Below are positions 21,164 through 63,108 of a DNA stretch of 64,000 bases, piece by piece. This DNA is from Gemmatimonas sp. (GTDB lineage: Bacteria; Gemmatimonadota; Gemmatimonadetes; Gemmatimonadales; Gemmatimonadaceae). Positions within the stretch are counted from its first letter, which is position 1; every line of letters starts with the position of its first letter. The notes beneath the pieces were generated by a model, which saw nothing but the letters and a program-made list of their open reading frames with translations, was not told the origin of the DNA and did no database searches. The stretch is from NCBI GenBank assembly GCA_011390805.1, contig JAABRT010000005.1, positions 9,649 through 73,648 on the forward strand. Direction: 5' to 3'. The translations under genes and the position numbers were made by a program.

Positions 21164-27795
<6,632 letters not shown>

Positions 27796-43023: not shown

Positions 43024-45648
43024 CTATCCCGACTTGCCCGGCCAGAGCTGTTGTCGCCCTCTCACCGCCGGTCGTTCAGACTGCGCCGTCATGCGACGCA
43101 CACGATCCGACAGCTTCTCGGTGCTCAGCTTCTGACGCGTGCGGTCAACCAGCAATGGAAAGGCCAGAGGCGTGGGACGCTCCACATCAATGACGCGCAC
43201 ATTGCTGGCCGAGAGCCGCGTGAGGACGCGTCCAATGCGACTGGCCTCAAGCTGCCGCTCCAATACTTCACGCTGCGCCTGATGCAGCAGCAGGTTGTCA
43301 GGATCAAATCGCGAGAACACGTCAAACAGCAACCCGCTGGACGCTTGCACCTGCTTGATGGATTTCTGCTGCCCCGGAAACCCGCTGAAAATCAGACCGG
43401 CTACACGTGCGATTTCACGGAACTGTCGCCGCGCGAGCTCAGCCGCATTGAGGCTTTGTGTGATGTCGTGCAGCATGTGCGCCGGAGACAGCAGTCCGCC
43501 GTCAAGTGCTTCCTCCAACGGCGCGAGCTCCGGCGAGAGTAACTCGAAACCGTAATCGTTGCAGGCGAAGCTGAAGGTAATGGGACCGTGCTGCGCAATG
43601 CGGTAGGCGAACAGTGCCGACAGTCCTTCATGCACCAAACGTCCTTCAAAGGGATAAATGAAGAGGTGAAATCCCTCGCGCGTTTCACAGCGTTCAATGA
43701 GCAGTTCTTGAGGTCGCGGAATCGCTGAACGCTCAGCCTGCAGCAGCAACAGCGGTTTGATTGCCTGCAGCTCAGCGGTGTTGTACACACCCGTGCGTGC
43801 GTTCTCCAGCGTGTCGCGCACCGCCGATGCCAACTCTGTAGACAGCGGCATGCGTGCGCCGGCCCAACGCGGAATCGCATGCGCCATGGACTTGGCCTTG
43901 CGCACCCAGGCCACCAGATCACGCACGCGCACAAACTCAAGCGCCCGGCCGGAAAACAGGAACACGTCCCCGGGCTTGAGGCGCGCAATAAAACTCTCCT
44001 CCACTGAGCCGATGCGCCCACCGCTCATGAAGCGCACGGCAATGGATGTATCGCTGACGATTGTGCCGATGTTCAGTATGTGACGCCGCGCAACCTGTGC
44101 GTCGCGCACGCGATAAAGTGCTCCGTCGAATACCAGTCGCGCGTACTCGGGGTAGGCCTGCAGCGTATCGCCACCACGCGTGGCAAAGTCAATTGCCCAG
44201 TCAAGTTCCTCCCGTGTGAGCGACTGATACGCACGCGTGGTACGCAGTTCAGCCAGCGCTCCGTCAGCTGTGAAGCCACCGCCGAGTGCCAGCGTCACGA
44301 GATGTTGTACGAGCAGATCAAGTGGCCGGTCCACCGGATCGCGTGATTCGATGGCCATGGCGCGCATGGCGTCACGCGCCGCAGAGACTTCGATGAGCTC
44401 CAGTGCGTTGGTTGGCACACAGACAATGCGCGACACACGCCCGGGCGAATGGCCTGATCTGCCGGCCCGCTGCAGCAGACGGGCAACCCCCTTGGGGCTG
44501 CCGATTTGCATGACCACATCAACTGGCGAAAAATCCACGCCCAGGTCGAGCGAAGACGTTGAAACAACAATGCGAAACCGGCCGCTGCGCAGTCCGTCCT
44601 CTACGGAGCGACGCTGTTTGACGTCCAGTGAACCGTGGTGGAGCGCGGTGAACTCAAACCAGTCAGGACGTGCGGTACAGATAGACTGGAACCACAGCTC
44701 GCACTGGCTGCGGGTGTTGGTGAATACGATGGCGCTTTCGGCCTGTTCAAGTCGCTCAAGGACCTGCGGGAGCAGTTTGACATTGAGGTGCCCGGCCCAT
44801 GGGAAGCGATCCATGGTTTCCGGGACAAGTGACTCAACAACGATCTCCTTCGGTACGAGGCCGCGAATGAGATTTGCCTCATTCGGTACTGCGGCTGGTG
44901 CGTCATGCTTCACGCTATCCCGTGCGGGGCGACGCTTTGGTGAGTGCGCAGATGCATGCGCTGGAGCGCGATTGCCCACCAGCGTATCGCGCGCGACTTC
45001 CAGATTGCCAAGCGTGGCCGACAGGCCCCACGTACGGAGCTGTGGAGCAATGGCACGCAGTCGTGCGAGTGCCAACTCCGTTTGCGCACCGCGTTTGGTT
45101 GAGAGCAGTTCGTGCCACTCATCAACAATCACGCAGCGCAGATTGCTGAACAGCGACGCGTGGTCCTCCCGGCACAACATGAGGGTGAGCGACTCCGGTG
45201 TTGTAATCAGTGCTGTGGGTAAACGCTCACGTTGCCGTTGGCGCAGCGATGACTTTGTGTCTCCCGTGCGCGATTCCACTGTCCACGGAAGTCCAAAATC
45301 CTGCACGGGCTCAAGCAGCGCGCGTTCAGTATCGGCCGCCAGCGCACGCAGTGGCGTAATCCAGAGTACCCGCAGCGGATCGCTGGCATCGCGTTTGCGC
45401 CGTTTAGCTGCAGGCACCGCTTCGTGCCGTTCGTTCAGTGCCTCGGCAACCGGACCAAGCCACGCCGCGTAGGTTTTACCGGTGCCGGTAGCCGCGTGAA
45501 TCATCCCCGATTCGCCGCGTGCGTAGGCGTCCCATACCTCACGCTGGAACTCAAACGGCGACCAGCCGCGCGACGCAAACCACGCGTTTATGCGCTCCGC
45601 GGAAGACAACGTGGAATCGGTGCGTTTGCGTGCTGTTGTGACGGTCAT
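43024..45648 (-). CDS. Ligase-associated DNA damage response DEXH-box helicase (Lhr-core type)
   Basis: AATGTGKTYAAW, DEWH (VIVDEWHELL), SATL and QRAGRSGH. ATG 45648 overlaps the ligase stop (ATGA), so the track start at 45729 is rejected. Confidence 0.9.
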   Translation of the reverse strand: MTVTTARKRTDSTLSSAERINAWFASRGWSPFEFQREVWDAYARGESGMIHAATGTGKTYAAWLGPVAEALNERHEAVPAAKRRKRDASDPLRVLWITPLRALAADTERALLEPVQDFGLPWTVESRTGDTKSSLRQRQRERLPTALITTPESLTLMLCREDHASLFSNLRCVIVDEWHELLSTKRGAQTELALARLRAIAPQLRTWGLSATLGNLEVARDTLVGNRAPAHASAHSPKRRPARDSVKHDAPAAVPNEANLIRGLVPKEIVVESLVPETMDRFPWAGHLNVKLLPQVLERLEQAESAIVFTNTRSQCELWFQSICTARPDWFEFTALHHGSLDVKQRRSVEDGLRSGRFRIVVSTSSLDLGVDFSPVDVVMQIGSPKGVARLLQRAGRSGHSPGRVSRIVCVPTNALELIEVSAARDAMRAMAIESRDPVDRPLDLLVQHLVTLALGGGFTADGALAELRTTRAYQSLTREELDWAIDFATRGGDTLQAYPEYARLVFDGALYRVRDAQVARRHILNIGTIVSDTSIAVRFMSGGRIGSVEESFIARLKPGDVFLFSGRALEFVRVRDLVAWVRKAKSMAHAIPRWAGARMPLSTELASAVRDTLENARTGVYNTAELQAIKPLLLLQAERSAIPRPQELLIERCETREGFHLFIYPFEGRLVHEGLSALFAYRIAQHGPITFSFACNDYGFELLSPELAPLEEALDGGLLSPAHMLHDITQSLNAAELARRQFREIARVAGLIFSGFPGQQKSIKQVQASSGLLFDVFSRFDPDNLLLHQAQREVLERQLEASRIGRVLTRLSASNVRVIDVERPTPLAFPLLVDRTRQKLSTEKLSDRVRRMTAQSERPAVRGRQQLWPGKSG

Positions 45649-47249
45649 GCACCATCCCGCTGCGCGCGCAACAGGCTGCGCACGGTTTCGAGTGAGTCGG
45701 CTTCGCTCGCGGGCTTGTCCTTGCGCCACCGCAACATGCGCGGAAAGCGCACCGCAATGCCGCTCTTGTGACGCGTGCTTTCCTGAATGCCTTCAAACGC
45801 CAACTCGAACACGAGCTCCGGTACAACGGTGCGCACCGGGCCGAACTTTTCCCTGGTATTGGCGCGCACAAAACGATCAACCTCACGAATCTCCGCATCG
45901 GTAAGTCCGGAGTACGCTTTGGCAAAGGGCACAAGCGCGTCGCCGTCCCATACGGCAAAGGTGTAGTCGGTAAACAAACCGGCACGACGCCCGTGACCAG
46001 CCTGTGCATACACAAGCACCGCATCAACGGTGAGTGGCGCCACCTTCCACTTGTACCAGTCGCCGGTGCGCCTGCCCACTCCGTATGCGGAATCACGCCG
46101 CTTGAGCATGAGTCCTTCGGCCTCTTGCGCGCGTGATGCATTGCGCGCCGCTGCAATGTCATCCCAGCTTGCCTCCGTGAGCAGGGGAGATACTGAAACG
46201 GGGGCGCCGGTTGGTAGCGCGGTCACAATGCTCTCCAGATATGACCGGCGAACATTTAGTGTCTCACTGCGCACATCGCGTCCGCCAACTTCCAGACAAT
46301 CGTACGCCACGAGGTGGACCGGGACATCTGCCAGCAACTTCTTGCCCACAGTCTTTCTGTTCAACCGTCGTTGCAGCGCCGTAAAGGGCAGCGGCTTTCC
46401 ATCACGCCAGGCGAGCAACTCTCCATCGAGCACGGTACCATCGGGCAGAAACGACACCGCCGCCTCGACTTCGGGGAACCGTCCGGCCAGCAGATCTTCG
46501 CCGCGGCTCCAGAGAAAAATGCGTCCTTTACGATGGATTACCTGCGCGCGGATGCCGTCCCATTTCCATTCCACCTGCCAGAGTTCCCGCGCGCCGAGCG
46601 ATGCGGGTTGTGCATCAAGTGCATAGGCCAGAAAAAACGGGTACGGCTGGCTCCAGTCGGCGTCACTCGTTTCAGTCGATAGCAATGACTCAAACCATGT
46701 GCCGCTCGGTTCCCATTGGCCCATGAGGCGATGGGCAATGACATCGGCTTCGATACCGCTCGCAGCCGCCAGAGCGCGCACTACCAGACCGTCGGATACA
46801 CCAACGCGAAACGCCCCGGTGAGCAGCTTGTTGAACACAAATCGCGAGGTGCCAGAGAGCTCGGCCCACGACTGCAACAACACGTCACGCTGATGCGGCA
46901 CATCAAGCGACTTGAGTGGCAGCAAGGTGTGCTCAACCCAGTCGGCGAGCGTGCGTGTGCTGTGGCTTTGGGCTTCCGGTATGAGCAGTGAAATCGCTTC
47001 CGCCAGATCACCGGTTTGCGAGTACGACTCTTCAAACAGCCAATCGGGAATATCCGCAGCCTGAGCCGCCCATACACGCAAATCGGGGGCACGCACCATG
47101 CGCTTGGGCCGGCGACCGGTAAGGAACGCCACCGCCCACGCGCTGTCGGCAGCCGGCGCACTCTGAAAGTACGCGGTCAGTGCCGCGACTTTGCTTTGTG
47201 TGCCCGTCGACGCATCAATGGCATCGTACAACTCGGCGAAGCGTATCAC
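45645..47249 (-). CDS. ATP-dependent DNA ligase (ligase-associated DNA damage response cluster type)
   Basis: Nucleotidyl-transferase motif I EWKWDGIRAQV. Its GTG start overlaps the exonuclease stop (GTGA). Confidence 0.9.
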   Translation of the reverse strand: MIRFAELYDAIDASTGTQSKVAALTAYFQSAPAADSAWAVAFLTGRRPKRMVRAPDLRVWAAQAADIPDWLFEESYSQTGDLAEAISLLIPEAQSHSTRTLADWVEHTLLPLKSLDVPHQRDVLLQSWAELSGTSRFVFNKLLTGAFRVGVSDGLVVRALAAASGIEADVIAHRLMGQWEPSGTWFESLLSTETSDADWSQPYPFFLAYALDAQPASLGARELWQVEWKWDGIRAQVIHRKGRIFLWSRGEDLLAGRFPEVEAAVSFLPDGTVLDGELLAWRDGKPLPFTALQRRLNRKTVGKKLLADVPVHLVAYDCLEVGGRDVRSETLNVRRSYLESIVTALPTGAPVSVSPLLTEASWDDIAAARNASRAQEAEGLMLKRRDSAYGVGRRTGDWYKWKVAPLTVDAVLVYAQAGHGRRAGLFTDYTFAVWDGDALVPFAKAYSGLTDAEIREVDRFVRANTREKFGPVRTVVPELVFELAFEGIQESTRHKSGIAVRFPRMLRWRKDKPASEADSLETVRSLLRAQRDGA

Positions 47250-51123: not shown

Positions 51124-52164
51124 TTACGGCACGATGATCGTGACACCCGGATGCGGATGTGTGTTCATGGTCGCCAGCGCCTGCGGTGCGTGATCCAGCG
51201 TGAGCCGGCGGGTGATGAGTTGTGCTGGCTTGAGCTGTCCGTCGGCAACCATGCGCAGCATGGCCGGATATGCGTGTGCCGCCATGCCGTGGCTGCCGAT
51301 CAGCTCAAGCTCCCGTGAGATGAGCAGATGCAGCGGTAAACGCGGCTCGGCGTCTGCACCGGCCAGCAGCCCCACCTGCACGTGCCGGCCGTTTCGCGCG
51401 AGAGAGCACAGCGCGTTACGCGCGGTCACGGCCGATCCGAGCGCGTCGTACGCACTCTGCACACCACCGCGGGTGATGTCGTGAATATGCGCCGCGATAT
51501 CTGTCACTTCGGTCGCATTGATGACGACTTCCGCGCCGTTTTCACGTGCCAATGCAAGCGCTTCGGGTGATACGTCAATCGCGATCACGCGAGCGCCCAA
51601 CGCATGCGCAATCATGACGGCCGACAGGCCCACGCCGCCACAACCGAACACCGCGGCCCACTCACCTGGTGCCGTACGTCCCTGCGTCACCACGGCGCGA
51701 AACGCGGTGGCAAATCGACAGCCAAGTGAGGCCGCTGTATCGAACGACATGTCATCGGGTAATGCGACAAGATTCACGTCGGCGTGATCAATAGCCACCA
51801 GCTCGGCGTATGATCCCCAGTGCGTAAATCCCGGTTGTGTTTGCTGTTCACACACCTGCTGCTGGCCGCGCGCACAGGTGGCGCACGAACCGCAGGCACA
51901 CACAAACGGCACGGTGATACGCGCATCCGGCTTCCATCGCACGACGTCGCGACCAACCGCGACAATCTCACCGGCCAGCTCATGTCCCGGCACGTGAGGA
52001 AAGGACGTAATGTCGGGGTCGTGTCCCTGCCAGCCATGCCAGTCGCTGCGGCAAAGACCGGTGGCGCGCACACGGATCACGGCGCCGTGTGATGCCGGAA
52101 CCGGGTCGGGAAGGGAGACCACCGACAGTGGTCCTCCAAATCGCTCGTATGCAACAGCACGCAT
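51124..52164 (-). CDS. Zinc-dependent alcohol dehydrogenase (MDR family)
   Basis: GLCRSDWH, PGHELAGEIVAVG, structural-zinc Cys cluster CACGSCATCARG, and GCGGVGLSAV. Confidence 0.9.
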   Translation of the reverse strand: MRAVAYERFGGPLSVVSLPDPVPASHGAVIRVRATGLCRSDWHGWQGHDPDITSFPHVPGHELAGEIVAVGRDVVRWKPDARITVPFVCACGSCATCARGQQQVCEQQTQPGFTHWGSYAELVAIDHADVNLVALPDDMSFDTAASLGCRFATAFRAVVTQGRTAPGEWAAVFGCGGVGLSAVMIAHALGARVIAIDVSPEALALARENGAEVVINATEVTDIAAHIHDITRGGVQSAYDALGSAVTARNALCSLARNGRHVQVGLLAGADAEPRLPLHLLISRELELIGSHGMAAHAYPAMLRMVADGQLKPAQLITRRLTLDHAPQALATMNTHPHPGVTIIVP

Positions 52165-52180
52165 GGGCGCGGGTGGAAGG

Positions 52181-52210
52181 TGATATGAGCCGATGTGAGG
52201 CGATATCAGT
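52181..52210. repeat. Three helically phased 10-bp direct repeats in a divergent promoter region
   Basis: TGATATGAGC, CGATGTGAGG and CGATATCAGT are consecutive 10-mers with core GAT[A/G]T[G/C]AG. They lie between the ADH start (52164) and the tesB start (52252), followed by an AT-rich stretch. Confidence 0.6.
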
Positions 52211-52251
52211 GAATAAAAACAGCAGGATGACAGCTCAGTAGATTATAGGGC

Positions 52252-53130
52252 ATGACAACACCCCTCGATGAGCTGCTCACGTTGCTCGATCTTGAGCCGC
52301 TGGAAGTGAACATCTACCGTGGTCTCAACCGGGACATCGGCTCTTCCCGCGTGTTTGGCGGACAGGTGTTTGCGCAGGCGCTGGTGGCAGCGCGACGCAC
52401 GGTGGATGAGCCGCGTGAAGCACACTCAGTGCACGGCTATTTCATTCTGCCGGGTGATCTGAAAGCGCCCATTGTGTATTTCGTGGACCGACTGCGTGAC
52501 GGTGGCAGCTTTGCGACGCGTCGTGTCACGGCGATTCAGCACGGACAGGCGATCTTCAACCTGTCGGCCAGCTTTCATCGCACCGAAAGCGGGCTTGAGC
52601 ATCAGCCTGTGATGCCGGAGGTGCCGCCACCCGATGAGCTGTCAGATGAGCTGTTGCTCATTCGCCAGATGGCAGAGCGCATCCCCGAGCGCTATCGCGC
52701 CGTCTGGACTCAGGACCGGCCAATCGATGTGCGTCCGGTCGATCCGGTTGATCCGTTCAGCCCCGATGTCCGTGCGCCGGTTCGCCGGCTGTGGTTTCGC
52801 GCGCGGGGGCGTATGCCTGATGCGTTGATGTTGCACCAGGCCGTGTTGGCCTATGCATCGGATTACAGCTTGCTGACCACTGCGCTGCTGCCGCATGGCG
52901 TTTCGTTCCGCGCGCCGGAGCTGCAACTGGCATCGCTTGATCACGCATTATGGCTGCACCGTCCGTTCCGGGCAGATGAATGGCTGCTGTACAGCATTGA
53001 CAGTCCGGTGACATTCGGAGCGCGCGGCTTTGCGCGCGGTTCCATTTTTTCGCAAGCGGGTGACCTCGTTGCATCCGTCGCGCAGGAAGGATTGATGCGC
53101 TTGCGACCCACCGGTGATTCACTGCCGTGA
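52252..53130 (+). CDS. tesB: Acyl-CoA thioesterase II
   Basis: Double-hotdog TesB pattern: LLDLEPLEVNIYRG, GGQVFAQAL, SVHGYFILPGD, ASDYSLLTTAL. Confidence 0.9.
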   Translation: MTTPLDELLTLLDLEPLEVNIYRGLNRDIGSSRVFGGQVFAQALVAARRTVDEPREAHSVHGYFILPGDLKAPIVYFVDRLRDGGSFATRRVTAIQHGQAIFNLSASFHRTESGLEHQPVMPEVPPPDELSDELLLIRQMAERIPERYRAVWTQDRPIDVRPVDPVDPFSPDVRAPVRRLWFRARGRMPDALMLHQAVLAYASDYSLLTTALLPHGVSFRAPELQLASLDHALWLHRPFRADEWLLYSIDSPVTFGARGFARGSIFSQAGDLVASVAQEGLMRLRPTGDSLP

Positions 53131-54281
53131 CGCCTGTGCTGTTATTGGCGGGGCTGGGACACTCACATCTCTTTGTGCTGGAGGCACTCAGGAAGGGTGA
53201 ACTGCCGCCCTGTCGCGTGCTGGTGTGTTCAGAAGAAGCGCATCACGTGTACTCCGGTATGGTGCCGGGGTGGTTGGGCGGACGCTACTCGCCCTCCGAG
53301 CTGACGGTTGATATTGCAGCTATATGCGCCAGCACCGGCGCGGAGTATGTAAGCCGCAATGTGGCGGGAGTGGATGCGGTCTCGCGCACGGTGCTGCTCA
53401 GCGACGGGACATCGCTTCCGTTTGACGTGTGCTCGATTGCCGTTGGTTCTCGACCCGCCGGTGTGGAGACCGAAGGAGTGCGCGAGTGGGCATGGCCGCT
53501 CAAGCCGCTGCAACGCGTAGAAGGCGTGCTGCGACAACTCAAAACACTCGCCGCTGCGCGCGCGGGTGCGGTGACAGTGGTTGGCGGAGGGTTGGCTGGC
53601 ATCGAGGTCGCGCTGGCCGCGCGTGCGAGGCTGCGCATTGAAGGTGCGCCGTCAAACACTGTACCGGTGCGCATCGTGAACCGGGATGCAGCACTGAGCA
53701 CCGGTCGCGGGCGCGGATTTACATCACGGCTTGAAGATGCCTGTGCACGCCACGCGGTGGCGATTCATCACAACGCGCGCGTGAACGCGGTGTCGGAACA
53801 CGGTGTGCAGCTAAACGACGATGAGCAGTTGCCCAGCGATGTGACCATCTGGGCTACCGGACCGGCGGCTGCACCATGGTTGGCCAACTGTGGTCTGGCG
53901 GTGGACGACCGCGGATTTCTGTTGGTCAACGAGCATCTGCAATCACTGTCGTCGCCGCATGTGTTCGCCGCGGGTGATTGCGCCACCCTCGACCACGCGC
54001 GCGATACACCTAAAGCTGGTGTGTACGCCGTACGCATGGGTCCGCATCTGGCGCGTTCGCTGGCGCAGGCGTTACGCGGTGCACCCGTTACCGAGCGCTA
54101 CGATCCACAACAGCGTTGGCTTACGCTCGTGAACACCGGTGATGGACGTGCGGTGGCCAGCTGGGGACCGTTCACGGCACAGGGAAAGTGGGCCATGCGG
54201 TGGAAAGACAAGATCGATCGCGCCTTCATGGCACGGTTTTCGGATCCCGTTCATCGTCCCCGTGACGGCGTGTCGCGATAA
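53127..54281 (+). CDS. FAD-dependent pyridine nucleotide-disulfide oxidoreductase (NDH-2-like; resembles the family often fused N-terminal to SelD)
   Basis: LLLAGLGHSHLFVL, VTVVGGGLAGIEVALA, VFAAGDCAT. The GTG start overlaps the tesB stop (GTGA). Confidence 0.8.
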   Translation: MTPVLLLAGLGHSHLFVLEALRKGELPPCRVLVCSEEAHHVYSGMVPGWLGGRYSPSELTVDIAAICASTGAEYVSRNVAGVDAVSRTVLLSDGTSLPFDVCSIAVGSRPAGVETEGVREWAWPLKPLQRVEGVLRQLKTLAAARAGAVTVVGGGLAGIEVALAARARLRIEGAPSNTVPVRIVNRDAALSTGRGRGFTSRLEDACARHAVAIHHNARVNAVSEHGVQLNDDEQLPSDVTIWATGPAAAPWLANCGLAVDDRGFLLVNEHLQSLSSPHVFAAGDCATLDHARDTPKAGVYAVRMGPHLARSLAQALRGAPVTERYDPQQRWLTLVNTGDGRAVASWGPFTAQGKWAMRWKDKIDRAFMARFSDPVHRPRDGVSR

Positions 54282-55092: not shown

Positions 55093-56232
55093 TTATTCCA
55101 CCGCCGCCGGTGTCGAAGATTCAGCGAACACCGGTGCCAGCAGCCCATCCCGCGAACGACCGTGCGGGTCCTGGTTGGCGCGAATGGCGTTCACCATTTC
55201 CAGCGCTGTCTGGGTAACCGGCGGAAGCTCCGCCGCCGACTGCCCGAGCGGAGTCACACGCTCTCCCCACTTTACCAGCAGCGAGCAATACGTGAGCCCG
55301 CCACCAAAGGCCGGCATGAGCAGTGTGCTGCCCGGCTTCACCCGGGATGCTTCCAGCGCTTCAACGAGCGCTACCGGAACCGTTGCCGCACTCATGTTGC
55401 CGTACTTCTGTACGGTAACGATTACACGCTCCATTGGAATACCCGCGTACTTGGCGACTGATTCGATAATCCGCAGGTTGGCCTGGTGTGGAATGACCAG
55501 ATCTACATCGTCGGCCGTCTTGCCGCACTGCTCCAGCACCCGACGCGATGCATCGGACATGGCGTGTACCGCGCGTTTGAAGATCGACTGGCCATCAAAA
55601 TCCCAGATGGTGTCACCGTAGGTGATGTCGTGCAGCGCGTACGTGCATCCCATGCCGCGCACGCGCAGCGTTTGCCGGCCTTCAGCATCACAGCCAAGCA
55701 CGCTTCCCAGGACACCTTCTTCATTGTCTGAAGCCTGCAGCACAACGGCCGCTGCGCCGTCACCAAAGAGCACCGCGACGCCACGGTTACTCCAGTCCAT
55801 GTATCGACTGATCAGTTCAACGCCAATGACCACGGCATTCCTGACAACACCCGTTCGAATCATGGCGGTCGCGGTGGTCAGGCCATAGCAAAAGCTCGTA
55901 CAGGCGGTGTTGAGATCGATGCTCGCAGCCTTGGTGGCACCGAGCGCGAACTGTACACCGCTGGCCGAATTCGGAACGAGCTCGTCGTTGGAGACGCCGC
56001 CGTAAATGATGAGATCAACGTCAGCCGGATCGAGTCCGGCACAGGCCAGCGCACGTGATGCGGCAACGGTGGACAGTTCAATGGCTCCCACGTGCGAGAC
56101 GCGTCGCTCTTTCATGCCGGTACGTGAGACAATCCACTCGTCGGAGGTATCGAGAAACGTGGAAAGATCGTCGTTGGAGAGCACGGCGGGCGGCATGCAC
56201 TTGCCCCAGCCTGTAATCGCGGCGTACGTCAT
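55093..56232 (-). CDS. Beta-ketoacyl-ACP synthase III (FabH-like) with a C-terminal extension of about 50 aa
   Basis: Catalytic triad contexts NTACTSF (Cys), PHQANLRI (His) and GNMSAAT (Asn). N-terminus ITGWGKCMPPAVLSNDDL..DTSDEWIVSRTGMKERR. The tail after the core is LGQSAAELPPVTQTALEMVNAIRANQDPHGRSRDGLLAPVFAESSTPAAVE. Confidence 0.85.
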   Translation of the reverse strand: MTYAAITGWGKCMPPAVLSNDDLSTFLDTSDEWIVSRTGMKERRVSHVGAIELSTVAASRALACAGLDPADVDLIIYGGVSNDELVPNSASGVQFALGATKAASIDLNTACTSFCYGLTTATAMIRTGVVRNAVVIGVELISRYMDWSNRGVAVLFGDGAAAVVLQASDNEEGVLGSVLGCDAEGRQTLRVRGMGCTYALHDITYGDTIWDFDGQSIFKRAVHAMSDASRRVLEQCGKTADDVDLVIPHQANLRIIESVAKYAGIPMERVIVTVQKYGNMSAATVPVALVEALEASRVKPGSTLLMPAFGGGLTYCSLLVKWGERVTPLGQSAAELPPVTQTALEMVNAIRANQDPHGRSRDGLLAPVFAESSTPAAVE

Positions 56233-56295
56233 GGTTCCGGAGGGAGAGGGGTAAGGCAGAAAGCTGTGGCGGTTCTTGCACAAATGCGAGGGGTG

Positions 56296-57369
56296 CTACC
56301 GAACCGACTCCCGGGTTGGCATCACGGCCCAGTAGTCAAAGTCGAGCACCACAGCCGGATCGTAGGCACCTTCGACATTGCGCAGCGGAAAATCATGCGA
56401 CGCACGGTCTTTCAGAGCGACTGTACGCAAACGCAGCACACCAAGATCGGTGCGCCCGGGCAGCGGCTCGCGGGCCAGCACTTCGCTCCATGCATAAATG
56501 GTGTCGCCCGCAAAGACGGGACTCACGTGACGACCTCCGTTAATGCCAACCATCGCAAACGCATTGCCCAACCCGTTAAAGCTCAATGCACGCGCCAGGC
56601 TGATGATGTGACCGCCGTACACGATGCGCCGGCCAAACCGTCCTTCACGCTCCACGTGCTGGTTGAAGTGCACACGTGCCGTATTCTGAAACAGTCGTGC
56701 GGCCGACATGTGTTCCGACTCTTCAATGGTCATTGCATCCACGTGGTCGATGCGCTCGCCGACACTGTAGTCGTCCCACACAAAATCGCTGCCGGCCAGC
56801 TGCGTGTCGTAGCTCCCGGGCGCGAGCGTGAACGGAATGTGCAAACCCTCGGCGGTTACGGCCTCCGGCAAGGCGGGAACCACCGTTTCCGGCGCTGGTG
56901 ACGATGCATCGCGCTTGCGCACCATCACCCAGCGTGTGTACTCCACCACCATCTCATCACGCTGGTTCACACCGCGTGATCGCACATACACCACACCCGT
57001 GGTGCCATCACGATTGGCCTTTACGCCAATGACCTCGCTGATGGTGCGCACCGTATCACCGGCGTACAACGGCACGCCAAAGCGACCGTCAGCATAACCG
57101 AGATTCGCAATCGCGTTGAGCGACACATCAGGCACCGTTTTGCCAAACACCATGTGAAATACCAGCATGGAGTCGAGCGGTGCATCGGAAAAACCAATCG
57201 ACTGCGCAAAGGGTGCCGACGAGCTCACCGCGAATCGCGGGCCGAACAGCGACATGTACAGCGACGCATCGCCGTGCGTAATCGTGCGGGGTGTCGCGTG
57301 TACCAGCGACTGCCCAACCACAAAGTCTTCAAAGAAGTTGCCGAGCTGTGTCTTTGATGCCGGCATCAT
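56296..57369 (-). CDS. mch: Mesaconyl-C1-CoA hydratase (beta-methylmalyl-CoA dehydratase), double MaoC/hotdog
   Basis: About 357 aa. Collinear with my recollection of Chloroflexus Mch: GNFFEDF.VGQ..VHATPRTIT.GD, LNAIANLGYA.GRFG, RWVMVRKRD...APETVVP.LP, HVEREGRFGRRIVYGGHIISLAR, YDPAVVLDFDY. The start overlaps the mcl stop by 1 nt. Confidence 0.9.
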   Translation of the reverse strand: MMPASKTQLGNFFEDFVVGQSLVHATPRTITHGDASLYMSLFGPRFAVSSSAPFAQSIGFSDAPLDSMLVFHMVFGKTVPDVSLNAIANLGYADGRFGVPLYAGDTVRTISEVIGVKANRDGTTGVVYVRSRGVNQRDEMVVEYTRWVMVRKRDASSPAPETVVPALPEAVTAEGLHIPFTLAPGSYDTQLAGSDFVWDDYSVGERIDHVDAMTIEESEHMSAARLFQNTARVHFNQHVEREGRFGRRIVYGGHIISLARALSFNGLGNAFAMVGINGGRHVSPVFAGDTIYAWSEVLAREPLPGRTDLGVLRLRTVALKDRASHDFPLRNVEGAYDPAVVLDFDYWAVMPTRESVR

Positions 57370-58412
57370 CAGAATCCGTACGCCGCCGACAGCTCCGGAT
57401 CATTCTGTGCGACGAGCCGAGCCAGATCCACCATCACCTTGGCCTGCTTCCAGGTGGCGTCGTCCTGCATCTTGCCGTCGATCATGGCCACACCGCTGCC
57501 ATCGGGCATCGCCTCAAGAATGCGCTTGGCAAACAAGACCTCGGCGGCCGCCGGACTGAACACGCGGCGCGCGATTGCGATCTGATTGGGCGCCAATGAC
57601 CATGCGCCTGTGCATCCCATCACAAACGCGTTGCGGAACTGTGCCTCACATCCCTCTTCATCACGGATGTCACCAAACGGTCCGTAAAACGCACGGATGC
57701 CGTGCGAGACGCAGGCATCCACCATGCGCGCTACTGTGTAGTGCCACAAATCCTGCTGCACGAAGGAGCGCGGTGCATCGGCCGAACCGGGATCCGCGAG
57801 CACACCGTAGAACGGATGACCACCACCAACGCGCGTTGTCTTCATCCCGCGCGAGGCCGCAAGATCGGCGGGCCCCAGACTCATGCCGTGCATGCGCGGA
57901 CTGGCGCCGGCAATCTGCTCCACATTTTTCACACCTTCCGCCGTTTCCAGCAGCGCGTGAATGAGGATCGGCTTTTTGATGTCATATCTCGCCTCGAGCA
58001 ACGCGAGATACTGGTCAACAAAGTGAATGTCCCACGGACCTTCCACCTTGGGAATCATGAATACATCGAGCTTGTTGCCCGCGTCGCGCACAATCTGCTC
58101 AAGATCATCAAGAAACCACGGCGAGTTGAGGCAGTTCACGCGTACCCACAGCGCCGTGTTGCCAAAGTGATTCGCGTTGGCCACTTCAATAAAGCCCTTA
58201 CGCGCCGCTTCCTTGTCTTCAACAGGAATGGCGTCTTCAAGATTGCCGCACAATACGTCTACCTGTGTGATCATATCCGGCACGCGCGCACGGATTTTTT
58301 CAATGTGCGGCGGGAAAAAATGAATCATGCGTTCGGGGCGCACCGGCAGCGCACGCAACGGTTCGGGTGCACCAATGGCGAGCGGTTTGTAAAAGTTGAA
58401 CGGCAGCTTCAC
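57369..58412 (-). CDS. mcl: (S)-malyl-CoA / beta-methylmalyl-CoA / (S)-citramalyl-CoA lyase (HpcH/CitE-like)
   Basis: Near-collinear with my recollection of Chloroflexus aurantiacus Mcl: [139 protein letters not shown]. Confidence 0.92.
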
Positions 58413-58431
58413 GCGTGCGCTCCAGTACGTA

Positions 58432-59664
58432 TCAGGGTTGGGTGTCAGTCGGGCCGGCGACTACGCCGTCGTCATGCAACGTGCCGAGTTCCGCTTCGCT
58501 GACGCCCGCCAGCTCAAGCAGGATCTCGTCTGTGTGTTGGCCAAGCGTAGGTGCCGGGCGGACGGTGACGCGCGCGGCGTCGCCAAACGCAAGCGGCGAG
58601 CCGGCGGCCAGTGTCTCGCCCACGCCGGGTTGCGTGAGAGTGCTGAACATCGGATTGGCGGGCGACATATCAGGATCGTCGCGCAACGCCTCACGTACTG
58701 AGCGATACGGCGCCCAAGTGACGCGATGCTCAGTGAAGGCCGTTGCGACTTCGGCCAACGTGCGGCTGGCAAACCATGGCTCAAGTTCGGCCGCAATCTC
58801 GTAACGCGCGCGAAAGCGATTGCCTTCGTCTTTGAGATCGAGGCCAAGATTGGCGCCAATGGATGTCATCGCACTGCCGGAACCGGTGGCTGAACACAGC
58901 GTCATCCACTGGGCATCGGTGAGACCAACCACCATCACACGCTCTCCATCGCGCGTCACGAAGTCTCTCCCGAACGCACCGTAGAGGTAGTTGCCGTAGC
59001 GTGCCCGGTCCGGCTGGCCGTGTTGAATCTCGCCAATGAATCCCAGATGGCCCAGCATCGCCAGTCCCACGTCCTTGAGCGCGAGTGAAACCAGTTGTCC
59101 GTGCCCTGTACGACTGCGATGACGTTCGGCGGCCAGCAATGCCAGTGCAATCTGATGTCCGGCAATCGCGTCCCAAGCGGGAAACACATGATTCACGGGC
59201 GTAACATCGTCGCTCGGACCAGTGATATGCGGAATACCGAGCTGCGGATTCACGGTGTAGTCAACTTCGGAGCCGCCATCACGCCGGCCGGTGAGGTTGA
59301 CCATGATCAGGTCTGCTCTGTGCGAACGCAGTTTGTCGTACGACAGCCAGCCGCGCGCTGGAAAGTTGGTGGAAAACATGCCGGCGTCGGCCCCCGGCGC
59401 GCAGATAATGCGCGTGAGCAACTCCTGGCCACGCGGTGAGCGGAAGTCTACCGCGATGGAGCGTTTGCCTTTGTTGAGCCCTGTCCAGAACAGGCTGGTG
59501 TTGCCATCGGCGGTGAGTGGCCAGCGCCGTGCGTCGAGGCCGCCGCCGATGGGATCAAAGCGGATCACGTCGGCGCCAAGCTGCGCCAGTGTCATACCGC
59601 CCAGCGGCGCGGCCACAAACGCCGATCCTTCCACAACACGCATGCCGTCCAGAATTCCGCGCAT
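58432..59664 (-). CDS. mct: Mesaconyl-CoA C1-C4 (intramolecular) CoA transferase-like, family III CoA transferase
   Basis: [91 protein letters not shown] and [12 protein letters not shown] match my recollection of Chloroflexus Mct. ATG 59664 lies 1 nt after the upstream stop, so the track start at 59754 is rejected. Confidence 0.85.
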
Positions 59665-59665
59665 C

Positions 59666-60892
59666 TCAAATGACTCCGTGTTCGCGCAGCTCGGCAATGC
59701 GGGCGTCGTCCAGTCCCAACACTTCACGCAGCACCTCATCCGTGTGCTGTCCAAGTGTCGGTCCGAGACTGCGCACGGTACCGGGGGTTTCCGAGAGCAG
59801 TGGCACCGGCGCCGGAATCACCATGGACTCGCCGGTGTGCGGATCGTCGATGGCCATGAGGTTGCGGCGTGCATGAAACTGACGATCGCCAAAAATGTCA
59901 GCAATGTTGTTGAGCGGTCCGGCTGGTGTATCGGTGGAGTAGCAGCGCGTGAGTACTTCTTCGCGCGTGAGCGAGCTGCACCAGTCGCGTACGATTTCGT
60001 TAACGGCGTGACAGTGGGTGAGCCGCACCTTCTGATCGCCGTAGGTACTTGACGATGCGAGCTCAGGACGCCCCATGGCCGCGGCCAGCCGTGCGAACAG
60101 CTTGTCGGTGGCACAGGATATGGCCACCCACTTGCCATCCTTGGTGGCGAAGTGTCCGTGCGGACAGGCAAAATCGTTGTGTGACGAACCCATACGCTCG
60201 CGCACAATGCCGTACATGCTGTACGCTGGCGCGAGTTCGTCAGTGCACCGGAACACCGATTCAAACAGTGCGGCGTCCACAAACTGACCTTCGCCGGTGA
60301 GGTCGCGATGCCGGAGCGCCATGAGCACGCCCAGGCATCCGTACAACCCGGTCATGTAGTCGCCAAGTGTGGTGGAGCCCGGCGTGACGGGCGTGCCTTT
60401 GGGCATGCCAGCCAGGTACGCAATGCCACCAACAGCGTGAGCAACACGCGCGAATCCCGGCCGGTCTTTGTACGGACCGGTTTGTCCGTAGCCGGTGACG
60501 CGCAACATCACGAGCCGCGGATTAATCTCGTGTAACACGTCCCAGCCAAGGCCCCATTTTTCGAGCGTGCCGGTGCGAAAGTTTTCGCACAGCACATCGG
60601 TTTTGGCGATGAGTTCCTTGAACAGTGCCACGCCATCGGGCGAACGCAGGTCAAGGGTGACCGAACGTTTGTTGCGCGCTTCGCTCACCCACGTGAGCGT
60701 ATCACCACGTTGCGACGGTGTGCCGAACCGGCGCAGGCCATCGCCGCCAAGTGGATGTTCGATCTTGAGCACATCAGCGCCAAACTCGCCCAGTACTGTG
60801 GCGCAGAATGGTGCGGCAATGATCGTGGCGATATCGATCACTCGAATGCCTTCAAGAGGCAGTTTACCGGGCGCAGCGGGAGGTGGCAGCAT
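59666..60892 (-). CDS. Family III CoA transferase, SmtA/SmtB-like (succinyl-CoA:(S)-malate CoA transferase subunit candidate)
   Basis: CaiB/BaiF pattern [37 protein letters not shown]. By eye it matches the adjacent 60898-62127 product at a large fraction of positions over its full length, as expected for a two-subunit paralogue pair. Confidence 0.75.
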
Positions 60893-60897
60893 GGCTA

Positions 60898-62127
60898 TCA
60901 GATGATGCGTTGTGCACGCAGGCGCGCGATTTCAGAGGCGGCGAGACCGAGCAGGTCGCGCATGACTTCATCGGTGGCGTTGCCCAGCACAGGCCCGAGA
61001 TTGGTGACCCGTCCCGGAGTCTTTGACAGATGCGGTACAACGCCCGGAATCACGAGGTCTTCAATGCCCTCTTCTGTCATGTGCAGCAGATCGCCGCGCG
61101 CGAGAAACTGTTCATCCTCAAAGATGTCGGCAATGCTGTTGACCTTACCTACCGGCACTTCTTCGGCGAGACATTTTTCCAGTACCTGTTCGCGCGTCAG
61201 TGAACCCACCCAGTCAATCACGATCGTATTCACGCGATCCCGGTCAGCCAGGCGTTTGCGCTGATCGCCGTACAGATTGCTCGACGACAGATGCGGTTGG
61301 CCCATGGCCACCGACAAGCGCTCGAACATCTTGTCGGTTGTGCAGGCAATGGCAATCCATTTGTCATCGGCGGTGCGAAAATGGCCATGCGGCACGGCCA
61401 CAAAGCTGCCGGAGCCTTCGCGCTCACGGATTTTTCCCGATGTGCCGTACGCCGTGGCGATTTCTTCAAGCACACGGAACACCGACTCGTAAATGCCGAC
61501 ATCAATCATCTGTCCGCGTCCAGTGCTCTCCTGATGCCGCAGCGCGATGAGCACGCCAATGGCTCCAAAGAGGCTGGCGATGTAATCGCCGAGCGGCACG
61601 GTGCCCGGAAGGACCGGTGTCTCACCGGGAAATCCCGAGAGGTAGTTCAGTCCTCCAAACGCCTGCGCGATGTGCGCAAACCCGGAGCGCCGGCGATACG
61701 GGCCAGTCTGCCCGTAACCTGACACACGCAGCATGACCAGACGCGGATTGGCTTCATGAATCTGCGCCCAGCCGAGTCCCCACTCCTCCATGGTGCCGGG
61801 TCTGAAGTTCTCCACGAGCACGTCAGACTTTTTCACCAGGGCCAGAAACAGCTGCACGCCTTCAGGATGGCGCAGGTCAATGGTTACCGATTTGCGGTTT
61901 CTTCCTTCGCTCAGCCATTTGAGCGACGCATCGCTACGGGGCGAGGGTGTTCCAAAGCGACGCATCGGATCGCCGGCAATGGGGTGTTCCACCTTGAGCA
62001 CCTCCGCGCCGAACTCGCCGAGAATGGATGCGGCGTACGGGCCGGCGAGAAAATTGCCCACATCAAGCACGCGAACGCCGCTCAATGGCAACTGTGTCTC
62101 GGATGTCTGGTCTTCCGATGTACTCAC
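60898..62127 (-). CDS. Family III CoA transferase, SmtA/SmtB-like (second subunit candidate)
   Basis: [40 protein letters not shown] start at 62127. It is divergent from the meh-like gene. Confidence 0.75.
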
Positions 62128-62223
62128 CAGGGATTCTCGGGTTCGGGCAGGGTGGAACTGCAGAGAACAACTGCTATCTTGGCGCCATCACGTGTTCGCG
62201 TCCACGCTTTAACGCCTGAGAAT

Positions 62224-63108
62224 ATGACTGCACACACGCCTGACATCACCGAATGGGTTGGCAAAACAGAAGTCGTGCACGATCCACTGTCGGTGACACA
62301 GGCTCAGGCGGCCGCGGCCATGTTTGACGCGGGCAATGTAACCCTTTCCGAACATTCGGCGCTGCCATCATTATGGCAATGGTTCTACTTCCTGCCTCGA
62401 GCGCCGCAGTCAATGCTCGACAGCGATGGTCACCCGGTGCGCGGTGGATTCCTGCCGCCGGTTGCATTGCCTCGCCGCATGTTTGCCGGATCACGAGTGC
62501 AAATGCACCAGCCGCTGCGTCTGGGCGTGCCAGCGTCACGGGAAGGCATCATTCACGACGTGACTACGAAGAGCGGGCGCAGCGGATCACTGGCCTTCGT
62601 CACGGTGCGATATCGCTTTCTGCAGGACGGCGTGCTGTGCCTGGAGGAAGAACAGGACATCGTGTACCGCGAGCCGGGCGCACCGGTGGCTGCACCCGCA
62701 ACCTTGGCCTTTCCCGATCCACCTGCCGACGCGCTGGTGCAGGACGTCACCGCCGACTCGCGGCTGCTCTTTCGCTTCTCGGCCCTCACCTTCAATGCCC
62801 ATCGCATTCACTACGACCGCGACTATGCGATGCACGAGGAGGGCTATCCAGGGTTGGTCGTGCATGGACCGCTCACGGCGATGCTGCTCGTGCAGTTGGC
62901 CGAACGCGCGGAGCAGCAGCGTGCGCACGCGCAAAAAGTGAACGCCCGCCGCATATCGTCGTTCAGCTTTCGTGGCGTGGCGCCCTTGTTTGACGGGGCA
63001 CCGTTCCGGTTGCAGGCGAGACACGACGCGGGGCGCGTATTGCTTGAAGCAATGAAACCCGACGGCGGGACGGCTCTGCGAGCGGAAGCAGGCTTTGACG
63101 ACGCCTGA
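62224..63108 (+). CDS. meh: Mesaconyl-C4-CoA hydratase ((S)-citramalyl-CoA forming), hotdog fold
   Basis: LWQWFYFLPRAPQS.LDSDGHP.RGGFLPP, RRMFAG, SGRSGSLAFVTV, EEEQDIVYREPGAPV, LLFRFSALTFNAHRIHYDRDYA.HEEGYPGLVVHGPL and FSFRG.APLFD.APFRL match my recollection of Chloroflexus Meh. The track ORF (61756) is extended through antisense of the neighbouring gene, and the real ATG is at 62224. Confidence 0.85.
   Translation: MTAHTPDITEWVGKTEVVHDPLSVTQAQAAAAMFDAGNVTLSEHSALPSLWQWFYFLPRAPQSMLDSDGHPVRGGFLPPVALPRRMFAGSRVQMHQPLRLGVPASREGIIHDVTTKSGRSGSLAFVTVRYRFLQDGVLCLEEEQDIVYREPGAPVAAPATLAFPDPPADALVQDVTADSRLLFRFSALTFNAHRIHYDRDYAMHEEGYPGLVVHGPLTAMLLVQLAERAEQQRAHAQKVNARRISSFSFRGVAPLFDGAPFRLQARHDAGRVLLEAMKPDGGTALRAEAGFDDA

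Follow-up and report, generated by a model that had tools for sequence, protein, structure and literature searches.

We analysed a 64,000-nucleotide stretch of Gemmatimonas sp. DNA (contig JAABRT010000005.1 of assembly GCA_011390805.1; the whole stretch is called the window below). Six adjacent genes at positions 56,296–63,108 very probably represent a Gemmatimonadales chromosomal copy of the glyoxylate-assimilation module of Chloroflexus, likely used for the co-assimilation of C2–C4 acids. In Chloroflexus, this module makes up the second cycle of the 3-hydroxypropionate (3-HP) bi-cycle. A first-pass annotation, made from the letters and a list of open reading frames (ORFs) without database searches, had read the same six genes as this enzyme set. 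It placed all six ORFs correctly, and the spacings it gave between them were exact.

Five of the genes lie on the minus strand and form one tightly packed operon. They are transcribed in the order smtA–smtB–mct–mcl–mch, with spacings of 5, 1 and 19 nucleotides followed by a 1-nucleotide overlap between mcl and mch. The smtA-like gene (60,898–62,127, 409 amino acids) and the smtB-like gene (59,666–60,892, 408 amino acids) encode putative CoA_transf_3 coenzyme A (CoA) transferases. They are followed by mct (58,432–59,664, 410 amino acids), encoding a predicted mesaconyl-CoA C1-C4 intramolecular CoA-transferase (2-methylfumaryl-CoA isomerase), and by mcl (57,369–58,412, 347 amino acids, GTG start), encoding a predicted trifunctional malyl-CoA lyase of the MCLC type. 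The last gene, mch (56,296–57,369, 357 amino acids), encodes a predicted mesaconyl-C1-CoA hydratase (beta-methylmalyl-CoA dehydratase) with a double hot-dog fold. The meh-like gene (62,224–63,108, plus strand, 294 amino acids), for a putative mesaconyl-C4-CoA (3-methylfumaryl-CoA) hydratase, diverges from a 96-nucleotide region shared with smtA (62,128–62,223), the presumed site of both promoters. The mct ORF is open upstream as far as a TTG at 59,754; we set its start at the ATG of MRGIL because of the alignment to the solved Mct and the 410-amino-acid gene calls in relatives. The meh start at 62,224 agrees with a 294-amino-acid NCBI protein of 100% identity. GC content is flat over the cluster.

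Pfam assigned the six proteins to broad families only (HpcH_HpaI, three CoA_transf_3, MC_hydratase/MaoC_dehydratas and FAS1_DH_region). Judged by HpcH_HpaI, CoA_transf_3 and MaoC_dehydratas domains, the cluster might be a generic set of CitE, CaiB/BaiF and MaoC proteins that serves an unrelated purpose, or else a chimera in which assembly introduced Chloroflexi DNA. Solved structures gave a far more specific answer. Mcl aligned without gaps to PDB entries 4l7z/4l80 (E=1e-195, 80.3% identity over 345 residues), which represent the trifunctional malyl-CoA lyase of Chloroflexus aurantiacus (PMC3832036). It keeps the Mg2+ ligands Glu157/Asp184, the water-holding Glu60/Asp61 and Arg92 (residues according to PMC3832036). 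The Rhodobacter Mcl1 of the ethylmalonyl-CoA pathway (4l9y) matched at E=4e-58 only, against 1e-195 for the Chloroflexus type, and we rejected that pathway as the context of the cluster. Mct was equally close to its counterpart from C. aurantiacus (8apq, E=2e-195, 70.7% identity, gapless). Leu43, Arg47, Arg75, Asn100, Phe101, Arg104, Tyr136, Asp165 and Arg314 are conserved, and Ile74 to Phe is the sole change among the listed ligand-binding residues (PMC9813914, PMC9196870). The catalytic Asp165, Arg47 and a tunnel-narrowing Leu/Ile43 typify intramolecular mesaconyl-CoA transferases (PMC9813914, PMC9196870).

Against family models, Mct matched TIGR04253 over 403 of 403 model positions (673.9 bits, E=8e-203), and the next best family scored 114.6 bits. 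Mch, with its MC_hydratase and MaoC_dehydratas domains, aligned without gaps to 4e3e (E=1e-168, 69.1% identity over 349 residues); we take this structure to be from C. aurantiacus as well, the database entry giving the molecule name only. A second structure, 8hgn, annotated as 'beta-methylmalyl-CoA dehydratase', followed at E=2e-134. The assignment of Mcl, Mct and Mch to Chloroflexus types was thus borne out by 69–80% full-length identity to characterised enzymes, with the catalytic residues of Mcl and Mct kept and the hydratase domains of Mch present. The best matches were not generic CitE, CaiB/BaiF or MaoC proteins. Together with the uniform GC content, the recurrence of the locus and its flanks in independent assemblies (L081, L082 and L086–L089) and the Gemmatimonadota affiliation of a housekeeping gene on the same contig (see below), these identities refute the generic set and the chimera, to which we give next to no credence.

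For SmtA, SmtB and Meh, evidence came from the same-position genes of metagenome-assembled genomes (MAGs) of Chloroflexaceae (loci L009, L012 and L016) and from database names. The SmtA-like protein (CoA_transf_3, E=1e-111) contains the GDY motif with the catalytic Asp of the family and is 75–79% identical to its Chloroflexaceae counterparts. For the SmtB-like protein (CoA_transf_3, E=6.5e-116) the values are 78–80%. Members of the ≥90% clusters of the two proteins bear the JGI names subunit A and subunit B, respectively. The adjacent pair, described beforehand as mutually similar, is 57% identical to one another and now has support from both relatives and names. Meh was likewise recognised as a divergent hydratase of its type: it is 60–63% identical to the Chloroflexaceae genes, and among its more than 8,000 homologues those at 61–72% identity bear the JGI name '3-methylfumaryl-CoA hydratase'.

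Two observations weigh against these assignments. The Mct score misses, by little, the curated TIGR04253 cut-off of 725 bits; given the 114.6 bits of the next best family, we nevertheless regard the assignment as unambiguous. Secondly, among solved structures Meh comes closest to two itaconyl-CoA hydratases, 8huc and 8khg (E=1e-60), so that the preference of Meh for its substrate is deduced from orthology and context only. Hydratases of the 8huc/8khg kind also hydrate mesaconyl-C4-CoA (PMC12290011). The cluster could accordingly be read as a system for the catabolism of C5-dicarboxylates (itaconate, mesaconate, methylsuccinate, citramalate) like Ict/Ich/Ccl, in which one CoA-transferase would activate the acid, Meh would hydrate itaconyl-CoA or mesaconyl-C4-CoA, and Mcl would cleave citramalyl-CoA. 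Itaconate degradation by Ict/Ich/Ccl (RipABC; PA0878–0883 in Pseudomonas) indeed has its last two steps in common with the module, the formation of (S)-citramalyl-CoA and its cleavage to acetyl-CoA and pyruvate; Meh is homologous to the Pseudomonas-type Ich, and Mcl and Mch match RipC/Ccl and RipB/Ich in part. However, these matches were of partial coverage and far below the cut-offs (RipB_Ich 104.2 bits versus 340, RipC_Ccl 132.9 versus 375). Mct and Mch, which with Mcl are so close to the Chloroflexus enzymes, have no role in itaconate degradation, and Pfam detected neither an acyl-CoA dehydrogenase nor an MmgE/PrpD isomerase among the window ORFs near the cluster. Meh itself appeared nearer to the Chloroflexaceae gene than to the solved hydratases, as judged by residue alignment. 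We therefore consider C5-dicarboxylate catabolism very unlikely.

A haloarchaeal methylaspartate cycle was rejected on similar grounds: NF041625, NF041626 and NF041294 scored 61, 74 and 104–239 bits against cut-offs of 560, 500 and 700. Pfam revealed no ccr, ecm, mcd or methylaspartate accessory genes among the window ORFs.

The reaction chemistry of the module is established from work of the Fuchs laboratory on Chloroflexus. From orthology to these enzymes we infer the activities of the six window proteins. SmtAB would transfer CoA from succinyl-CoA to (S)-malate, and Mcl would split the resulting (S)-malyl-CoA into acetyl-CoA and glyoxylate. In its second role, Mcl would condense glyoxylate with propionyl-CoA to beta-methylmalyl-CoA, which Mch would dehydrate to mesaconyl-C1-CoA. 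Mct would then shift the CoA moiety from C1 to C4 via an anhydride at Asp165 in a sealed active site, from which mesaconate would not be released. Meh would hydrate mesaconyl-C4-CoA to (S)-citramalyl-CoA, and Mcl, acting for a third time, would cleave it into acetyl-CoA and pyruvate. In sum, glyoxylate and propionyl-CoA would be converted into acetyl-CoA and pyruvate. Two Mct enzymes of other hosts, Ca. Accumulibacter phosphatis and an Olavius symbiont, are counted among the intramolecular CoA-transferases (PMC9813914), which supports activity of the module outside the Chloroflexota.

The bifunctional malonyl-CoA reductase (Mcr) and the trifunctional propionyl-CoA synthase (Pcs), enzymes of the CO2-fixing first cycle, had been reported as missing from the window, and a heterotrophic or mixotrophic rather than autotrophic role had been concluded from this. 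The absence was reproduced. Using queries from related loci (one Pcs, two Mcr fragments and one fused acyl-CoA carboxylase), tblastn gave no match at E≤1e-3 within the 64 kb, and Pfam analysis of 43 window ORFs found neither Mcr nor Pcs. The conclusion 'not autotrophy', however, does not follow from window content. In C. aurantiacus, mcr (Caur_2614) and pcs (Caur_0613) are located far from the module genes Caur_0173–0180 (PMC3150298), and since they are unlinked to the module there too, their absence from the window says little.

Several further points count against a purely heterotrophic reading, which rests on the absence of genes from 64 kb of a larger genome. Partial proteins of the Mcr family come from MAGs with the label Gemmatimonadaceae (P0285, P0316, P0321 and P0333), and some Gemmatimonadaceae MAGs have pcs and mcr side by side, pcs being the upstream gene (L084, JALOPR010000258.1; L085, JANRJP010000073.1). 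All genes of the 3-HP bi-cycle were reported from two Gemmatimonadales MAGs (Garritano et al. 2022, PMC9802188), and a 2026 preprint describes mcr and mcl markers in freshwater Gemmatimonadota (bioRxiv 10.64898/2026.09.02.748891). The cluster might then be the second half of a complete autotrophic bi-cycle, with pcs–mcr, acetyl-/propionyl-CoA carboxylases and methylmalonyl-CoA epimerase/mutase elsewhere in the genome and a (photo)autotrophic host. The adjacency of pcs–mcr to the same module in three Burkholderiales loci (L005, L008 and L015) is in line with this.

Yet the Mcr family is small. A search of 5.8 billion proteins gave 195 matches at E≤1e-3. The module, by contrast, is frequent, with at least 571 Mct-like loci in a scan of species-representative genomes and the more than 8,000 Meh homologues. 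In all Gemmatimonadota loci compared, that of the isolate G. groenlandica included, the cluster has no pcs, mcr or carboxylase gene at a distance of up to 10 kb, and among the best 120 of the 195 Mcr-family matches none is named for this sister lineage. The two Gemmatimonadaceae contigs with pcs–mcr are short (3.4 and 7.6 kb), which makes their binning uncertain, and a 2024 survey of marine Gemmatimonadota notes that autotrophy in the phylum is without physiological confirmation (PMC11316326). We consider an autotrophic host improbable, and we doubt as strongly that its genome also has the rare pcs–mcr pair and that the lineage runs the complete 3-HP bi-cycle. If it did, a CO2-fixing organism outside the Chloroflexota would become approachable in culture through its relative G. 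groenlandica. Most likely, the module serves to assimilate glycolate/glyoxylate, propionate and malate/succinate together while the cell grows heterotrophically or photoheterotrophically. This leaves the heterotrophic or mixotrophic role proposed beforehand plausible.

The smtA/meh intergenic region was inspected for regulatory elements. It holds 'CCATCACGTGTTCG', with a CACGTG core at 62,189–62,194. Seven of the nine Gemmatimonadota loci have this core in the same region and the remaining two have versions with a single mismatch; the 11 loci of other phyla all lack it there. We regard the core as a candidate operator or promoter element specific to the lineage. Across the window, ATCACGTG matched nine times versus 4.3 expected, that is, without clear enrichment. 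No sigma-70 consensus promoter was found in the 96 nucleotides, the number of terminator-like sites did not exceed that in shuffled sequence, and neither Rfam families nor tRNAs were detected in the window.

The host is a diderm Gemmatimonadales bacterium. Named homologues of the formate-tetrahydrofolate ligase (FTHFS) encoded on the same contig belong to Gemmatimonadales, Gemmatimonadaceae or Gemmatimonadetes at 72–75% identity, with the sole exception of a Vicinamibacterales protein near the bottom of the list. The window further contains a TetR-OEP-HlyD-AcrB efflux operon, TonB_C, BNR/Sortilin and CarboxypepD_reg proteins, a Ser/Thr kinase, Lhr, an ATP-dependent DNA ligase and others. The diderm, non-Chloroflexus context proposed by the first-pass annotation from the efflux, TonB, BNR and CarboxypepD_reg genes is thereby confirmed. 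The genes flanking the cluster (alcohol dehydrogenase, tesB, Pyr_redox_2 and fabH at the mch end; methyltransferase, FA_hydroxylase and patatin beyond meh) were recovered in independent assemblies. The joint recurrence of locus and flanks rules out an assembly chimera and speaks for stable residence in the chromosome.

Next to the module, 12 nucleotides downstream of mch, lies fabH for a beta-ketoacyl-acyl carrier protein synthase III (55,093–56,283, minus strand). Its product is an ordinary FabH (NF006829, 365 bits against a cut-off of 249; TIGR00747, 320 bits against 292). The gene stands beside mch only in the closer relatives L086 and L088/L089 and is absent from this position in L001, L004, L007 and L083. 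It may be co-transcribed with the module; as a module member we rejected it. Beyond fabH, positions 51,124–54,281 encode a CarboxypepD_reg protein, a TIGR03169-type pyridine nucleotide-disulfide oxidoreductase, tesB and a zinc alcohol dehydrogenase. Most of these genes, and the methyltransferase, FA_hydroxylase and patatin genes beyond meh, are kept in L086 and L088/L089 and not in other Gemmatimonadota. Exceptions are the CarboxypepD_reg gene, which is missing in L088/L089, and the alcohol dehydrogenase gene, before which L086 ends.

Two regions elsewhere in the window were recorded in passing. A 1,285-amino-acid ORF (21,164–25,021, plus strand) has no Pfam or NCBIfam match; inspection by eye showed a hydrophobic segment at the N-terminus and a lipase-like GYSKGG motif. 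On the minus strand (43,024–47,249), an Lhr-type helicase gene (DEAD, WH_Lhr, DEAD_assoc) adjoins that of the ATP-dependent DNA ligase, a pairing that looks like a DNA-repair gene set; further on follows a 384-amino-acid ORF without a Pfam family.

Among the Mct matches listed in our scan, the closest loci belong to Gemmatimonadales MAGs, led by L006 at 91%. The arrangement of meh divergent from smtA–smtB–mct–mcl–mch occurs at 16 other loci from four phyla. In the Gemmatimonadota it is found in five MAG loci of the species-representative genomes (L001, L002, L004, L006 and L007), in the closer relatives L086 and L088/L089, and in G. groenlandica (CP053085.1, L083). It is also present in Burkholderiales (L005, L008, L010 from Rubrivivax and L015 from Methylibium), in the three Chloroflexaceae MAGs and in a Myxococcota MAG (L020). 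In the latter, a gene for an 1,811-amino-acid single-chain acyl-CoA carboxylase with biotin carboxylase, BCCP, ACC_central and carboxyltransferase domains follows the module (L020:13,362–18,797).

Trees were computed by neighbour-joining with Kimura distances from concatenated proteins, using a six-gene and a three-gene set. The window paired with G. groenlandica at 92–97% bootstrap and lay inside a Gemmatimonadota clade, for which support reached 89% with the larger gene set and 55% with the smaller. The loci of Burkholderiales, Accumulibacter and Chloroflexales MAGs each formed a clade of their own at 100%; C. aurantiacus and L018 joined the Chloroflexales MAG clade at only about 60%. The deep branches between phyla received 8–57%, which leaves their order unresolved, and for this reason we claim no direction of transfer. 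The tree check that had been suggested for a horizontal origin thus supported the grouping with G. groenlandica within the Gemmatimonadota and did not settle the deep order. Because of this grouping and the neighbourhood common to close relatives, the cluster is not a recent acquisition. A recent transfer from Chloroflexus in particular is ruled out by the uniform GC content, the Gemmatimonadota clade and the stable neighbourhood. The module proteins keep 70–77% identity across phyla, in agreement with the transfers between phyla that other authors have proposed. Partial bi-cycles are known from several proteobacterial lineages, and even the Chloroflexi were probably horizontal recipients (Seah et al. 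2019, PMC6593406). Its scattered occurrence, with one clade per phylum and proteins still 70–80% identical between phyla, exemplifies the spread of a metabolic module as one unit.

How does the cluster compare with known systems? C. aurantiacus encodes the same six families in the same order and orientation: Caur_0173 (mch), Caur_0174 (mcl), mct, Caur_0178 (smtB), Caur_0179 (smtA) and Caur_0180 (meh) (PMC3150298). The collinearity described in the first-pass annotation holds at the level of gene order, and the alignments of Mcl, Mct and Mch are gapless. In contrast to C. aurantiacus, the window lacks the two further loci that the Caur numbering implies and has its genes packed together, and the host is a mesophile-type diderm of the Gemmatimonadales instead of a filamentous Chloroflexota phototroph. 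Within the Gemmatimonadota, the proteins of L006 are 86–97% identical to those of the window, and the G. groenlandica cluster (CP053085.1, 1.566–1.573 Mb), its sister in the tree, has the identical arrangement, its six proteins being about 78% identical when concatenated. The fabH/tesB/methyltransferase/FA_hydroxylase neighbourhood is common only to L006, L086 and L088, whereas other Gemmatimonadota have different flanks.

The window copy brings no new enzyme, arrangement or host order, and the novelty implied by the first-pass annotation was overstated. The module has been published for Proteobacteria (PMC6593406, citing Zarzycki and Fuchs 2011), a glyoxylate-salvage gene arrangement similar to the reference was described in 2022 for two Gemmatimonadales MAGs (Garritano et al. 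2022, PMC9802188), and correct JGI names exist; the finding is thus already known. General importance attaches to the module itself, by which bacteria make acetyl-CoA and pyruvate from glyoxylate and propionyl-CoA and which has found use in synthetic designs for CO2 fixation.

Proteobacterial systems differ from the window in several ways. Ca. Accumulibacter, Ca. Competibacter, Kentron and Olavius symbionts possess a partial 3-HP bi-cycle (PMC6593406), and most Accumulibacter loci compared have no smtAB beside mct–mcl–mch. The Burkholderiales MAGs share the enzymes (70–77% identity) and the arrangement with the window. In three of their loci (L005:3–4,831, L008:9,975–17,755 and L015:12,894–21,090), Pcs (about 1,850 amino acids, AMP-binding+ECH+ADH) and Mcr (two short-chain dehydrogenase/reductase domains) are encoded directly beside the six-gene module. 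Since pcs–mcr adjoin it there, most bi-cycle-specific genes form one block in these loci; in the window they are not joined to the module. The window copy is of practical value in two respects only: the contrast between Burkholderiales, where pcs–mcr are physically linked to the module, and the Gemmatimonadota loci compared, where they are not; and the presence of the same cluster in the cultured and sequenced G. groenlandica, in which the role of the module is genetically testable.

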